Below, one piece after another: positions 4,104-13,828 of a DNA stretch of 22,338 nucleotides; position 1 is the first letter of the stretch, and each line of letters opens with the position of its first letter. This stretch comes from a virus. The translations under genes and the position numbers were made by a program. The stretch is from the UHGV virus genome UHGV-0114988; one strand, written 5' to 3'. The notes beneath the pieces were generated by a model that ran no database searches, was not told the origin of the DNA, and was given only the letters and a program-made list of their open reading frames with translations.

Positions 4104-4442
4104 GCATGTAAAAAGGCTCCTGCGATGAGGAGCCTGGATATATGCCTAATCTCTGTATACAGCATGATGCCGGGTGCCTCCCGGTGAGTTCAGTATCAGC
4201 ACCTGAACCCGCACCAGATAAGGGATATAACCAACCACCTGTCGCTGATATGCCCCTCCGCACAGGGGGATTCACCATGCCAGTTTCTTTTAACAAATAC
4301 TCAGTCTGACAGGCAACTGTCAACTGACTGAATTGTGAGACATTTAAAATTTTCGGGGCATGACTGATACCCGGCTAACCACCTGATGCTTCCTTTTTTA
4401 GCAACAAACAGGTCCACCAAAGTGAGACAGAAAAAATAAGTG

Positions 4443-4519
4443 TGGCGCGTTGTACTGGATTCGAACCAGTGACCGATTGCTTAGAAGGCAATTGCTCTGT
4501 CCGGCTGAGCTAACAACGC
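4443..4519 (-). tRNA. tRNA-Arg (anticodon UCU), 77 nt
   Basis: Minus-strand sequence GCGTTGTTAGCTCAGCCGGACAGAGCAATTGCCTTCTAAGCAATCGGTCACTGGTTCGAATCCAGTACAACGCGCCA folds as a cloverleaf: 7-bp acceptor stem, anticodon stem ATTGC/GCAAT with loop CTTCTAA, T-arm ACTGG-TTCGAAT-CCAGT, and an encoded CCA. Confidence 0.85.
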
Positions 4520-4689: not shown

Positions 4690-5112
4690 TTATAACCATA
4701 ACATATTTTTTTGTGCGCACACAACCCTTTCAGGTAGTACAACTTCAGGATCCATATCCAACCTTACTCCCTGCAGAGTCAGAGCTCCTTCCAGAAATGC
4801 TTCAGACGCCTTCAGGGATGTCCGTACGCTAAAATGACTACGGTCTATCGCCTCAGCAATTGCACGCGTTGAGAGGCCGCCTATAAAACGTAACCCCAAG
4901 ATCAGCAAATCATCGTACGGGCAAACCATACTCATATGCGCGATGCAGGTATCAATCACCGCTCCATCCTCGTCAGAGCAACCGGGTTTGCCACTGTCGG
5001 TTACGTCCCGGGAAGTAACCGACATTGAGGGCCAGTCAACCATTGAACAGTATTCCTCGCTCGCCGCCCATCGCCCCCACCGCTCCAGAACAAGTTGCAT
5101 ATCTCTACGCAT
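4690..5112 (-). CDS. Q: Late-gene antiterminator Q (phage 21/933W-type Q family)
   Basis: N-terminus MRRDMQLVLERWGRWAA resembles 21/933W-type Q proteins as recalled. Position is immediately upstream of the tRNA/late lysis region. Confidence 0.65.
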   Translation of the reverse strand: MRRDMQLVLERWGRWAASEEYCSMVDWPSMSVTSRDVTDSGKPGCSDEDGAVIDTCIAHMSMVCPYDDLLILGLRFIGGLSTRAIAEAIDRSHFSVRTSLKASEAFLEGALTLQGVRLDMDPEVVLPERVVCAQKNMLWL

Positions 5113-7590: not shown

Positions 7591-7791
7591 TTACACCTTT
7601 TGTCTAGCTGTCACTTCCTGAAAAAGTTTTTCTATCGCACGTACTGTAGAAAAGCGAGGGTCAGAATGAACCCCGGTAAGAAGCCGACTAATAGAAGACT
7701 GCTTCACGCCTGCAATTTCGGCAATTTGGTTTTGGGTATACCCTGAATCAATCAAGCTTTTGACCATCTCTTGTGGTGTTAGTCCGGACAT
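7591..7791 (-). CDS. Cro-like small HTH DNA-binding protein (66 aa)
   Basis: HTH-like segment YTQNQIAEIAGVKQSSISRLLTG. Divergent from the CI-like repressor, first gene of the minus-strand early operon, GGAGA RBS. Confidence 0.6.
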   Translation of the reverse strand: MSGLTPQEMVKSLIDSGYTQNQIAEIAGVKQSSISRLLTGVHSDPRFSTVRAIEKLFQEVTARQKV

Positions 7792-7932
7792 ATTTAAGTC
7801 TCCACTTTCGTCTATAGCGCAAATTTATACGAAAACGGATTACCCAGCAATACAGCAATTCTATGTCATCCTAGATTAAAATATCCGATAACGCATAATC
7901 ACCGTCCCTGTATACAACATGGATGAATCCAA
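7792..7932. promoter_or_regulatory. Divergent promoter/operator region between cro-like and cI-like genes
   Basis: 141-bp intergenic region containing a minus-strand TATAAAT (+ strand 7823-7829), the palindrome TGTATACA (about 7909-7916), and the motif GATAACGCATAATCA (7887-7901) that recurs twice downstream of cI. Confidence 0.5.
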
Positions 7933-8607
7933 ATGATTGATACTACCGATATCCTTTCTCAAAACATCAAGTACCTGATGGACAAAGCCAAGATAAGCTC
8001 GATAACTGAGCTGGCACGTCGGTTACAGCTGAACCAACCAACGCTACACAGGCTGGTATCAGGAGAGGTGAAAGATCCGAAATACGCAACGTTAAAGCAG
8101 ATCGCCGACTACTTCCACGTGTCACCAATAGACTTGGCAGAAAGGAGCCTTCAAGAAATGGAGAAAGAGGACGCGACAGGTATAAAAACGTATATTTCTC
8201 TTAGGTTTAATAAAGTACCTGTTTTGGGAAACACTCAGCTAGGCGTTGGAGGACTTTGGAGCGACACCCAATATTCAGTAGGTAGCAGTGATGGTTTCAT
8301 ATACTGGCCGACAAAGGATGAAGATGCATACGCCCTGAAATGTGTTGGTGATTCAATGATGCCTAGAATCAAAGAGGGGGAGTTCGTAATCGTCGAACCC
8401 AACCACGACTACACTCCTGGTGATGAAGTACTTGTGGTTACCCGGGACGGTGAGGTCATGGTTAAAACCTTCTTGTTCGAACGCGATGGCCTGTTCCATC
8501 TAATGTCTGTAAATGAAGATCATCCACCAGTCAGAGTACCACGCGAAAACATTGAAAAAATCCATTACGTGGCGGGGATCGCCAAATCCGCGCTACGTAT
8601 GTACTAA
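7933..8607 (+). CDS. cI: CI-like prophage repressor: N-terminal HTH plus C-terminal LexA/S24-type autopeptidase domain
   Basis: N-terminal HTH (SITELARRLQLNQPTLHRLVSG); C-terminal GDSMMP (Ser nucleophile) and VMVKTF (Lys) consistent with an S24 Ser-Lys dyad; 224 aa. Confidence 0.85.
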   Translation: MIDTTDILSQNIKYLMDKAKISSITELARRLQLNQPTLHRLVSGEVKDPKYATLKQIADYFHVSPIDLAERSLQEMEKEDATGIKTYISLRFNKVPVLGNTQLGVGGLWSDTQYSVGSSDGFIYWPTKDEDAYALKCVGDSMMPRIKEGEFVIVEPNHDYTPGDEVLVVTRDGEVMVKTFLFERDGLFHLMSVNEDHPPVRVPRENIEKIHYVAGIAKSALRMY

Positions 8608-8640
8608 CCTTTACAGTCTGATAACTTACTTCTGATCAAA

Positions 8641-8670
8641 CCGCTCTCCACAAGGGCGGTTTTCTTATTT
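8641..8670 (+). terminator. Intrinsic terminator after cI (CCGCTC-loop-GGGCGG plus TTTTCTTATTT)
   Basis: 6-bp stem (including one G-U pair) followed by a T-rich run, 34 nt after the cI stop. Confidence 0.45.
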
Positions 8671-8691
8671 GCAAAATAATTCATTTTCGCA

Positions 8692-8721
8692 TTGACACAA
8701 AATCCCATAACGCATATAAAT
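8692..8721 (+). promoter_or_regulatory. Near-consensus sigma70 promoter (TTGACA-17 nt-TATAAA(T)); candidate early-left pL-type promoter, overlapped by operator-like repeats
   Basis: TTGACA at 8692-8697, 17-nt spacer, TATAAA at 8715-8720. Motifs CATAACGCATATAAA (8706-8720) and GATATCGCATAATCA (8724-8738) overlap the -10 and start region; the latter matches the cro/cI intergenic site at 14 of 15 positions. Confidence 0.5.
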
Positions 8722-8756
8722 ACGATATCGCATAATCAATGCATTTTTTAATACTG

Positions 8757-8768
8757 GCTCTTTAACAA
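8757..8768 (+). promoter_or_regulatory. boxA-like antitermination element GCTCTTTAACAA
   Basis: 12-nt identity to the rrn-type boxA core (UGCUCUUUAACAA) as recalled, about 35 nt downstream of the predicted start of the pL-like promoter. Confidence 0.4.
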
Positions 8769-8913
8769 ACTAAACCGCGTGACAGGTAAGCCGCAGTACT
8801 CCTGGCAAAATGAAATGGCACCCGATGGGATCGAGGTAAGCGCCGAGTCCGTATGCGTACGGTAAGCGTAGAGGACAACACCGCGACAAACTGATAAGTC
8901 ACGCAAGTTGAAA

Positions 8914-8944
8914 CGCCCCGACGATGGGGCGCTTAGTTCCTTTT
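8914..8944. terminator. Hairpin CGCCCC-GACGAT-GGGGCG with U-rich flanks (terminator-like, possibly bidirectional)
   Basis: 6-bp GC stem; CTTAGTTCCTTTT follows on + strand and TTTCAACTT on - strand. Lies about 80 nt 3' of the minus-strand gene 9026..9550 and about 190 nt downstream of the pL-like start. Confidence 0.35.
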
Positions 8945-9025
8945 GGGGTGGGGTGAAGATCAGTCCATTGAGTCAATCCGAAGTTCAGCATCTACCACTA
9001 CACCACCACCAAAGAGAACTGCTAA

Positions 9026-9550
9026 TCATCTGGCAGGTTGTAACGGTGCAGGAATTTTGCCACTGACTTCTATATTTCGGGGAAATTTATATTCAGCGGA
9101 GCATTTATGACACTTGAGAATTTTATAAGCGGCATTAGAAGTATGGTATTGAAGTATAGACTTCATACCCGACTCATAGCATGTAGTACAAAGATAATGA
9201 GGCTTGAACTCAGGATCGTCAGTAGGCTTCAGTACATAGACCACCGTATTGGTAATCGGGTGGTACATTTCATAGTTCATTTTCTCACTATCCCAATCCT
9301 GTTTCTTTTCCAGAAGGGATTCGAGTTCAACAATGCGCTGTTTAGCTTCGTTCAAAAGCTCCGTTAGTGCGAATTGTCCAGTACGCGCATCAATTAGTTT
9401 ATCAAGTAGATCGATAGTTTTACTTTTAACATTGTAATCCACCTGCAACGCATTAACTTCTTTTGCTAAATCAACAGCACCTTTCAAAGCACCACCAGCA
9501 CTAGTGGCCGCCTCAGTTATACGCCGTACAAGTCCTTTTTCTTCAGACAT
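9026..9550 (-). CDS. Hypothetical coiled-coil protein with C-terminal Cys4 zinc ribbon (174 aa); moron-like gene opposed to the early-left operon
   Basis: ATG ORF; N-terminal 100 aa predicted helical/coiled-coil; CxxC...CxxC (CTTCYE...CHKCSAEY) at the C-terminus. No family recognised. Confidence 0.55.
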   Translation of the reverse strand: MSEEKGLVRRITEAATSAGGALKGAVDLAKEVNALQVDYNVKSKTIDLLDKLIDARTGQFALTELLNEAKQRIVELESLLEKKQDWDSEKMNYEMYHPITNTVVYVLKPTDDPEFKPHYLCTTCYESGMKSILQYHTSNAAYKILKCHKCSAEYKFPRNIEVSGKIPAPLQPAR

Positions 9551-9570
9551 CTTAATTCTCTCTAAAACTA

Positions 9571-9620
9571 TAGGGGTAAAGAGATATTAGCCGAATTCTC
9601 GCTGTAGGGGTACAGAGAGA
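9571..9620. repeat. Two direct repeats TAGGGGTA(A/C)AGAGA spaced about 34 bp, upstream of the minus-strand gene 9026..9550
   Basis: Read directly at 9571-9584 and 9605-9620; plausible promoter/operator elements. Confidence 0.3.
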
Positions 9621-9678
9621 GCCATCTCGTCTGACGTGGTTAAAACTGACATCCATGTAATTGCTGTGTGTAGCCTTT

Positions 9679-9707
9679 GCCCGCCTCAAGTGACGGGCTT
9701 TTTTATG
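9679..9707 (+). terminator. Intrinsic terminator (GCCCG-N10-CGGGC plus TTTTTTAT) on + strand
   Basis: 5-bp GC stem, 10-nt loop, 6-T tract, about 55 nt upstream of the small ORF at 9764. Confidence 0.4.
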
Positions 9708-9763
9708 TCTGAAAGCGCACTCGCAACAGCGCGCTCCCCGATATGAAAAAAGGAATACAACCG

Positions 9764-9913
9764 ATGAAACCTGAACACATCCATCGACTGACGGGGCGCG
9801 ATGTTCTCCGTTATCGCCGTAAAAACTTCGATTTGATGACCGGTCTGGCCGTTGCCACTGCGCTCGGTCTGATCATCACTTTCATTCTCCTTGTAGCGAG
9901 GACCACAGTATGA
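9764..9913 (+). CDS. Hypothetical small tail-anchored membrane protein (49 aa; alternative start at 9743 gives 56 aa)
   Basis: [49 protein letters not shown]: basic N-terminus, C-terminal TM helix. AAGGA RBS 8 nt upstream. Stop TGA overlaps the ATG of the next gene (ATGA). Confidence 0.4.
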   Translation: MKPEHIHRLTGRDVLRYRRKNFDLMTGLAVATALGLIITFILLVARTTV

Positions 9914-12720: not shown

Positions 12721-13063
12721 GCAAAGGGGAATATGCCCAGAGCTACCTGTATTGTTCTGGTTAGCACCCAGTCGCCCTGCTACCCCGATATTGACTCATC
12801 GCCCCCTTCCGGTTTATGCTCACCGAATCTCCCAAATGGAGATCGGGATTTGCAACCCGGAATTGTTAGGGGCGACACCAGACGCGCCAGCGTCTTTTTT
12901 ATTGTCGCAAGCTTTGCCACGTTCGCATTATGGCGGGCTGGCGGGGGCGCTTCGGCGCGCCGGTTTCCTCTAACGCCGGTATTGCAAACCTCGTCAGTTC
13001 GCCACCCATATGAGATTTGCAACTCAGTGGTGGCGGTGAATTTCACCGTTAGAGGTAACTGTG

Positions 13064-13828
13064 ATGGCAACTCAGCTCATCCCCGTTTTCAACGGCGCTA
13101 TCGCCAACGAAACCACCCTGCTCTGCAATGCTCGCGATCTGCACGCATTCCTTGGGGTAGGGAAAGTGTTTGCAGCGTGGATTACATCACGAATTGCAGA
13201 CTATGAATTCGTTGAAAATCAGGATTATATCGTAACGTTTTCCAAAACTGGAAAGCGTAAAAATGTTCTTTGTAAGGACTACCACCTCACTCTCGATACA
13301 GCCAAAGAACTGGCGATGGTGGAGCGCAACGAAAAAGGCCGCCAGATCCGCCGATACTTCATCGAGTGCGAAAAGAAACTTCGCCAGCAATCCTCCACGA
13401 TACTGGCGCCACACAGGGAGTGTCTGCCGAAGATGGTTTACCATCACCGGAGCAAATACAATCCGTACAGGGCTTATGCATGGGACGGAGAGAAAAGCGT
13501 TTACGTCGGGTGCTATCCGACTGTGGATGAGGCTGTCGCTGCTCAGGAACGCTTCTACCGGAACGGCAGCACGAAACGCATTCAGAAGGCGCAGACAGCA
13601 GTCAGTGACGCAGAGAAGGAAATGTTCATCAACAATCTCCGCGCCGTCTGCCATAACTTCCGGCGCATCAATGAAATCTGGCGGGCGCAGTTAATGCCTG
13701 CTCTCGAAAAAATGGATTCGAAACTGGTTTACCAGCTGCATGACCGCTTCAGCGACAGCATGTGCATTCTGCCGACCATAGAAGACCGCATCGGCAGATA
13801 TATTCCGCCGTCACAGCTTCCACACTAA
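13064..13828 (+). CDS. AntA-family antirepressor-like protein with uncharacterised C-terminal domain (254 aa from ATG; track start is GTG at 13061)
   Basis: N-terminal region (ARDLHAFLGVGKVFAAWITSRIADYEFVENQDY ... YHLTLDTAKELAMVERNEKGRQIRRYFIECEKKL) resembles the AntA/AntB N-terminal domain as recalled. AGAGG RBS. Confidence 0.6.
   Translation: MATQLIPVFNGAIANETTLLCNARDLHAFLGVGKVFAAWITSRIADYEFVENQDYIVTFSKTGKRKNVLCKDYHLTLDTAKELAMVERNEKGRQIRRYFIECEKKLRQQSSTILAPHRECLPKMVYHHRSKYNPYRAYAWDGEKSVYVGCYPTVDEAVAAQERFYRNGSTKRIQKAQTAVSDAEKEMFINNLRAVCHNFRRINEIWRAQLMPALEKMDSKLVYQLHDRFSDSMCILPTIEDRIGRYIPPSQLPH

Follow-up and report, generated by a model that had tools for sequence, protein, structure and literature searches.

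A boxA-led structured RNA as a putative early-leader antiterminator of enterobacterial prophages

Three described systems stand closest to the element studied here, a structured RNA leader that begins with a boxA and lies just past the repressor gene of UHGV virus genome UHGV-0114988 (the window below is the whole stretch that was analysed, 22,338 nucleotides (nt), with the strand as given taken as plus). In the nut sites of phage lambda, boxA is accompanied by boxB, a short hairpin with a purine-rich pentaloop, and an arginine-rich N protein is encoded downstream. The rrn-type signal of ribosomal RNA (rRNA) operons binds NusB/NusE and assembles with NusA, NusG and SuhB, and the put RNA acts on RNA polymerase via the beta-prime zinc-binding domain. 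The rrn boxA together with its spacer has been reported to be sufficient against Rho-dependent terminators (PMC2724277), and the use of boxA outside rRNA operons is documented (PMC5725501). The put RNA is about 70 nt long and consists of two stem-loops, with no boxA and no protein factors (PMC9378689). Lambdoid phages without N have been noted repeatedly in the literature, with put usually assumed; for one of them, LLS, 'put-like' antitermination was inferred by default in a 2025 survey (PMC12315714). We found no description of the present element in the searchable literature, the paper on the HK639 antiterminator lying outside that search, and a literature search on the boxA string or on an RprA-like prophage RNA returned nothing relevant. 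Based on the comparisons given below, we infer that the element is a new member of the early-leader antiterminator RNA type.

An earlier note on this DNA had described a pL-type promoter directly past the cI terminator, two operator-like copies at this promoter of a motif also found between cro and cI, and a 12-nt identity to the boxA of ribosomal operons. All of these were present, and they frame the element as follows.

8638-8662, plus strand: intrinsic terminator of the cI (immunity) transcript, a 10-bp stem followed by a T-run
8692-8720, plus strand: pL-type sigma-70 promoter as read from the sequence, with TTGACA at 8692-8697, a 17-nt spacer and TATAAA at 8715-8720
8707-8716 and 8725-8734, plus strand: operator-like ATAWCGCATA, overlapping the spacer/-10 region and the predicted start
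7888-7897: third copy of ATAWCGCATA, between cro and cI
8757-8768, plus strand: boxA GCUCUUUAACAA (GCTCTTTAACAA), the 5' edge of the conserved module
8777-8904, plus strand: structured domain of 128 nt, in which the long stem P1-P1b-P2-P3 closes a junction with three arms (P3b, P4 and P5-P6)
8914-8931, plus strand: P7, the conserved 3' hairpin of the module (CGCCCC-GACGAU-GGGGCG)

The start of pL is predicted at about 8727, and the same -35 and -10 hexamers occur in relatives of the same immunity type; a consensus promoter scanner missed the site solely by demanding a T at position 6 of the -10 hexamer. The motif ATAWCGCATA has exactly three exact copies in the window, all inside the immunity region, compared with about 0.09 expected by chance according to our own estimate. 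The boxA lies about 30 nt past the predicted start, and GCTCTTTAACAA occurs once in the window. Its 12 bases match the boxA-spacer region of rrnG (cac-ugcucuuua-acaauuua), corresponding to the rrnG boxA plus the first four spacer bases, ugcucuuua-acaa (PMC2724277). When compared with the consensus boxA UGCUCUUUA, the form carried by the window and its closest relatives (subtype A, below) is identical at 8 of 9 boxA bases and at 4 spacer bases.

The locus shares some properties with each of the described systems. Like lambda nutL, it stands at the start of the pL transcript with boxA near the 5' end, and its likely task is to carry polymerase through the terminators before the early genes. Unlike nutL, it has the full rrn consensus boxA instead of lambda's CGCUCUUA, and there is no N-family gene. 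Moreover, no local hairpin of the boxB type is conserved between boxA and P1, the first helix being formed by the long-range 5' strand of P1. With the rrn leader it shares the 12 bases GCUCUUUAACAA of rrnG, and both are untranslated RNAs that would need protection from Rho. However, the rrn, suhB and CRISPR boxA elements are without a counterpart of the 128-nt folded domain, and the rrn complex is described mainly as Rho-resistant, whereas the present element must also pass a strong intrinsic terminator. Like put, it would be a cis-acting RNA directly after pL in lambdoid phages without N, and HK639 is likewise annotated with one copy, which lies in the left operon, the right operon having none. 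Unlike put, it is about 175 nt long, begins with boxA, and has a long closing stem, a multi-arm junction and an extra 3' hairpin.

We found that the conserved unit extends from boxA to the P7 hairpin (8757-8931, about 175 nt) and is present at more than 200 phage, genome and metagenome loci. A sensitive search identified the leader in 104 of 5,426 complete Escherichia coli genomes, about 2%. Many of the E. coli matches open precisely with the first base of boxA (query base 78, window 8757) and end at base 252-264 (8931-8943), and E. coli prophages with differing promoter/operator sets have only 8757 to about 8943 in common. Similarly, an alignment of six copies showed three unrelated promoter/operator regions joined to the same module, with variable DNA past the hairpin. 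For the wider family, a degenerate 30-mer from the conserved core was scanned over three collections, which yielded 6 species representatives (Pseudocitrobacter, Citrobacter, Trabulsiella, two Enterobacter and Pluralibacter), at least 120 IMG/VR contigs and 85 metagenome contigs; positions fixed by the search pattern are invariant by construction and were not counted as evidence. A second pattern scan, anchored on helix P3 to escape the bias of the first pattern, added only 3 new variants of the same subtypes and chance matches such as locus L222.

The 117 distinct 186-nt sequences from these loci fall into three subtypes, and every one of them begins at boxA. Subtype A (57 sequences, including the window) keeps GCTCTTTAACAA essentially invariant, with at least 13 unrelated sequences standing upstream of it. 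The 11 sequences of subtype A2 share about 85% identity with A and carry CTGCTTCTTTAACAA as their boxA region, and subtype B (49 sequences, mostly from Enterobacter phages) is much more diverged, with GCTCATTAAGAA or GCTCATTAACAA. All three stand behind many unrelated repressor/operator sets: at 112 or more of 196 loci, the nearest upstream co-directional open reading frame (ORF) encodes a helix-turn-helix (HTH)/S24 repressor, with at least four repressor families represented, and at the remaining loci small accessory genes separate the repressor from the element. In subtype A, boxA is preceded at 18-43 nt by promoter-like sites; in A2 and B, this distance is about 60-66 nt. No second copy that could serve the right operon, as an analogue of putR, was found in the window or in 100 loci, and the covariance model gives exactly one copy per locus.

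The fold of the 128-nt domain was predicted by RNAalifold for subtypes A, A2 and B separately. The same seven-helix architecture appeared in the same alignment columns with different sequences. The helices, with plus-strand positions in the window, are listed below.

8777-8783 with 8898-8904: P1 (A, GCGUGAC/GUCACGC; A2, UGAGUGAC/GUCACUCA; B, AGCAGC/GCUGCU, extended to 12 bp)
8789-8791 with 8890-8892: P1b
8792-8798 with 8879-8885: P2 (A, CGC-x-GUG/CAC-x-GCG; A2, CGUAGC/GCUGCG; B, CCGG-x-GCG/CGC-x-CCGG)
8800-8803 with 8872-8875: P3 (UCCU/AGGA in A, A2 and B)
8805-8806 with 8818-8819: P3b, two pairs with an A-rich loop of 11 nt
8820-8826 with 8830-8837: P4 (A and A2, ACCCGAU/AUCG-a-GGU; B, GCCCAAU/AUUG-a-GGC)
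8840-8843 with 8866-8869: P5 (A, GCGC/GCGU; A2, GCACU/GGUGU; B, GUGUGU/GCACAC)
8849-8853 with 8858-8862: P6 hairpin

The structure was tested on the sequence-only MAFFT alignment, with the 3' partners slid by 1-3 columns as controls. Standard pairs were found in 90.4% of cells, compared with 27-45% in the slid controls. The number of pairs changed on both sides was 12 (2-6 slid), that of cells changed on both sides was 461 (4-53 slid), and the covariation score reached 0.253 (at most 0.06 slid). Alignments fitted to the covariance model built from this alignment gave the same result. The frequent G-U pairs indicate that the structure belongs to the plus strand. Within subtypes, compensatory events were seen in locus L231 (U-A in P1, CAAAG/CUUUG in P2), and P2 positions 44/134 and 45/133 vary in L018, L219 and L016. 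The alignment of the leader across related prophages, which the earlier note had suggested as a check, thus revealed a shared and covarying fold. Because 8757-8931 is conserved and covaries over more than 200 loci, the features listed for it go beyond chance. A search of Rfam 15 gave no match on 8757-8931, either at the gathering threshold or at E up to 10, and none in eight related loci.

The fold also accounts for three spaced GGTAAGC motifs that had been pointed out as repeats. The copies are present (8785, 8835 and 8861, plus strand), but they do not form a repeat family: copies 2 and 3 provide both strands of P5 with the adjoining junction, copy 1 falls within the internal loop between P1 and P1b, and the repeats are not kept in A2 and B. 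GGTAAGC as a protein-binding repeat was rejected on these grounds. One IMG/VR copy of the element (L105, 6466-6625, minus strand) is without 26 nt between the second and third GGTAAGCG, so that the whole of P6 is gone together with the 5' strand of P5; this loss looks like a repeat-mediated deletion.

The relation to put is seen most directly in phage HK639, whose GenBank record annotates a 'putL-like antiterminator RNA' after pL. The first 75 nt or so of this feature are clearly homologous to HK022 putL. We found that the leaders of A2 and B loci open with the same 49 nt or so as that of HK639, CCATCGAAACGAAACATCGAYAGCTGAG.GAAGTTAGCCAGCGGCG, and that many B loci also have its right flank, into the HK639_45 homolog. 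Between near-identical flanks, HK639 carries the annotated putL and Enterobacter phage BHUENT6 carries the boxA element. Judged from these flanks, the two cassettes have been exchanged in nature at a single functional slot. Exact replacement of putL argues for an equivalent function, and we regard it as our strongest argument. The equivalence does not extend to common sequence. Covariance model R1, built from the element and run with filters off, gave no match in HK639 or in the immunity region of HK022 (best score 11.7 bits, at an unrelated site), blastn detected no similarity between the boxA element and the put phages, and the put sequences of HK022 and HK639 align with each other and not with the boxA element. 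The earlier description of the leader as rrn-like or HK022 put-like needs correction: the element is not rrn-like beyond boxA and is not a homolog of put.

HK639 shows further points of resemblance. Window positions 8772-8792 (GAACCGCGUGACAGGUAAGCC) agree with the start of HK639 putL (GAACGGCGCGACAGUAAACC; L007, about 34314-34295, minus strand) at 17 of 21 bases, with different pairing partners; this may be a remnant of common origin, a product of recombination, or chance. The 'putL-like' feature of HK639 runs about 50 nt past the part homologous to HK022 putL (L007, 34187-34250, minus strand; L009, 2630-2690). Just ahead of gene 45, this extra part contains a hairpin that includes a boxA-like GCUCUUUG, and the same segment follows many subtype-B elements. 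In addition, A2 and B leaders and HK639 (L003, L006 and L009; for example L009, 2440-2470) have a hairpin GGCGGAC-AGCAA-GUCGCC, which in A2 and B stands immediately 5' of boxA, the boxB-boxA order of rrn leaders.

At the 3' end of the module, the earlier note had seen a terminator-like hairpin at 8914-8944 that might end a discrete small RNA (sRNA). This hairpin is the conserved helix P7, and it is not a terminator: P7 is followed by GCTTAGTTCC instead of a U-run, and it was not among the calls of the terminator scan. This leaves no support for a discrete sRNA with its end at that point. Homology between phages stops at P7, and the DNA beyond it is variable among relatives. In the window, it contains the following features.

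9026-9550, minus strand: variable inserted gene of 174 aa, PHROG 1244, function unknown, which the pL transcript would cross in antisense
9606-9708, plus strand: RprA-like segment, with a stem-loop at 9679-9698 and a U-run at 9699-9704
9764-9913, plus strand: first early-left gene, 49 aa, PHROG 11981, with a basic N-terminus and a hydrophobic C-terminus

The pL transcript would thus consist of about 1 kb of untranslated RNA, partly antisense to the 174-aa gene, followed by a strong terminator and then the replication genes. On the pL strand, no strong intrinsic terminator precedes the one at 9679-9704 (GCCCGCCUCAAGUGACGGGC + UUUUUU), and the first early gene (9764) begins about 60 nt beyond it. 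Since the 49-aa gene lies past this terminator, its expression from pL would require read-through. When compared with the Rfam family RprA (RF00034), 9606-9708 scored 46 bits (gathering score 70, E = 2.8e-4) and was near identical in the 3' half; a full-length match at the gathering score was not obtained, only the 3' half AAUUGCUGUGUGUAGYCUUUGCCC and the terminator (AAUUGCUGUGUGUAGCCUUUGCCC, hairpin, U-run) matching. Of 81 subtype-A elements, 58 are followed by the RprA-like core TTGCTGTGTGTAG with hairpin and T-run, 44-738 nt away depending on the inserted genes; no A2 or B element is. A strict scan for intrinsic terminators was positive in 50 of 55 distinct subtype-A contexts compared with 54 of 124 in the antisense-strand control. 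That the terminator may lie anywhere between 44 and about 740 nt away is consistent with polymerase being modified in a processive way. Downstream of subtype A, the 49-aa gene is found in 73 of 75 loci and a 300-aa gene in 68 of 75, forming the same early-left operon. Phage 606R2 and strains CUVET16 and KY176 have other genes in place of the 174-aa gene of the window. The 78 nt upstream of that gene (9568-9645) are about 82% identical to the annotated sieB promoter region of P22-like phages; the gene itself was considered as SieB and gave no detectable match in Pfam or PHROG.

A search for an N-like partner gave negative results. No plus-strand ORF in 8727-9764 had a match in Pfam or PHROG, none in 8727-9913 matched an N family in either database (the PHROG of the 49-aa gene being of unknown function), and no N is annotated in E. 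coli strain IAI1 or in phage 606R2, in agreement with the earlier view that no plausible N-type ORF precedes 9764. The phages that carry subtypes A2 and B are lambdoid, resemble HK639 and have gam/bet or kil/recE genes; their downstream proteins have no family in common with those of subtype A. The mEpimmI phages, which are Nus-dependent and non-lambdoid, were considered and set aside as a different group, having the N-like protein Gp17.

With moderate confidence, we favour the reading that the element is a cis-acting, N-independent, Nus/boxA-dependent processive antitermination leader. The earlier note had offered such a leader as one possibility. The start at boxA, the many immunity promoters, the covarying fold, the absence of a shared N and the replacement of putL speak for this part of its proposal, and the homology to rrn or put attached to it has fallen away. 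Upon derepression, transcription would start at about 8727. About 30 nt into the RNA the consensus rrn-type boxA would emerge, then the 128-nt multi-helix domain and then P7, and the RNA would act in cis on the polymerase that made it. The boxA would bring in NusB/NusE of the host together with NusG, NusA and possibly SuhB, and the folded domain would stand in for N-boxB or put by holding the complex on the elongating polymerase. The polymerase modified in this way could resist Rho over the untranslated, partly antisense 8727-9764 and could read through 9679-9704 into the early-left replication genes. The transcription from pL, the binding of Nus factors and the antitermination are steps that we infer from sequence comparison. 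More tentatively, and as one joint proposal, the element could represent a third class of phage early antitermination signal beside N/nut and put, in which boxA and a covarying domain use host Nus factors only and one lineage is coupled to an RprA-like terminator, with the module moving as a cassette between unrelated temperate phages of the Enterobacteriaceae.

Several observations weigh against this reading. Neither subtype A2 (GCUUCUUUAACAA) nor subtype B (GCUCAUUAAGAA) has a perfect boxA. The compensatory changes mostly distinguish the three subtypes from one another, so that the number of independent events is modest, and P3, P3b and part of P4 never vary, which is partly a matter of ascertainment because several positions were fixed by the search pattern. 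The single-sequence fold of 8727-8950 is no more stable than that of shuffled sequences (z = +0.6); given the strong comparative data, this score is not decisive. The strict terminator scan was positive in only 3 of 14 A2 and 16 of 55 B contexts, no more than in the antisense control, and this lack of a terminator excess weakens the read-through argument for A2 and B. Finally, subtype A is bound to a single early-left operon (73 of the 75 loci), and for A alone a phage-encoded partner is possible.

The alternative that survives best, although we consider it unlikely, is that boxA alone shields the long untranslated leader from Rho, as in rrn operons and CRISPR arrays, and that the folded domain has a separate role as a stable non-coding RNA produced upon induction, whether as a decoy, as a sponge for proteins or as a signal for processing; in subtype A, the folded RNA with its RprA-like 3' end might be a host-directed sRNA. 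The reported sufficiency of the rrn boxA and spacer against Rho terminators (PMC2724277) is consistent with this, as is the lack of a downstream intrinsic-terminator excess in A2 and B. In the minimal subtype-A layout, moreover, the RprA-like terminator lies 44-46 nt after P7, so terminated transcripts would be discrete RNAs of about 300 nt. However, the element keeps its place at the head of the operon even where 0.3-0.7 kb of variable sequence precedes the terminator, A2 and B are entirely without the RprA-like part, and P7, being without a U-tract, gives the folded domain no 3' end. The exact putL replacement also argues for the function of put. A weaker form of the sRNA idea survives beside the favoured antitermination leader: transcripts that stop at 9679-9704 would carry the RprA-like 3' end, and such ends may act as an RprA mimic on induction.

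We consider it quite improbable that the element is a nut-like site at which an unrecognised N-like RNA-binding protein of the phage binds the P3b, P4 or P6 hairpin. A boxA followed by hairpins is the layout of nut, and subtype A nearly always precedes the 300-aa gene and the small gene with the basic N-terminus (HRLTGRDVLRYRRKNF). However, this small gene lies past the terminator, encodes a hydrophobic C-terminal segment and has no N-family match, the downstream genes of A2 and B are unrelated, with no family shared across the subtypes, and the HK639-like relatives use put, with no N annotated in their early-left region. Less probable still is a sensing leader, riboswitch-like or titrated by a protein, that controls the continuation of pL transcription. 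Its multi-helix junction and invariant loops, placed in a 5' leader, would suit such a role, but no alternative pairing with a nearby terminator was seen, the terminator lies anywhere from 44 to about 740 nt away, and there is no Rfam match. The weakest alternative, that there is no functional RNA and the conservation stems from a small minus-strand gene or a recombination junction, can draw on minus-strand frames that are largely stop-free over the element and on an annotated 47-aa minus-strand coding sequence nearby in 606R2, but we rejected a minus-strand ORF because in subtype A all three minus frames are nearly open at once, which indicates base composition and not coding, subtypes A and B do not keep the same frames, no PHROG or Pfam match was found, and coding leaves the compensatory changes and strand-specific G-U pairs unexplained.

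To judge from its relatives, the window is an E. coli prophage, the integrated form of a temperate phage. Positions 8600-9760 are 99.4% identical to E. coli strain IAI1, where the prophage adjoins yfhL and shoB, and the relatives of the window include the induced phages vB_EcoM-606R2, 689R2 and 611R5. The immunity region and its surroundings are arranged as follows.

4690-5112, minus strand: Q antiterminator gene, left of cro and following a VapE-type primase gene
7591-7791, minus strand: cro-like HTH gene of the immunity region
7933-8607, plus strand: cI-like repressor with HTH and Peptidase_S24 domains, stop codon at 8605-8607
Right of cI: early operon with DUF2800, DUF2815, DNA polymerase, VRR-NUC and helicase genes

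Two other groups of RNA features were observed in the window. Just downstream of the Q gene are a full-length match to the STnc100 sRNA (174.6 bits; 4104-4309, minus strand) and a tRNA-Arg(UCU) gene (4443-4519, minus strand), at the site where the late-promoter leader transcript would be. Within the early-left operon, an isrK match (50.9 bits; 12827-12900, plus strand) lies beside a C4 antisense RNA match (70.6 bits; 12926-13009, plus strand), just before the ORFs 12733-13206 and 13061-13828, as a P1/Gifsy-type antirepressor control cassette; IAI1 has a different gene in place of this cassette.

If the proposed function is correct, the element would explain early gene expression in a sizeable group of enterobacterial prophages without N, present in about 2% of complete E. 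coli genomes, in several other genera and on many contigs from gut metagenomes. In addition, it would offer a natural example of boxA and the Nus factors being joined to a large folded RNA instead of a phage protein, and would provide a tractable system for what the passage of intrinsic terminators needs beyond boxA. As a compact and portable module, it could serve as an antitermination part in engineered operons.

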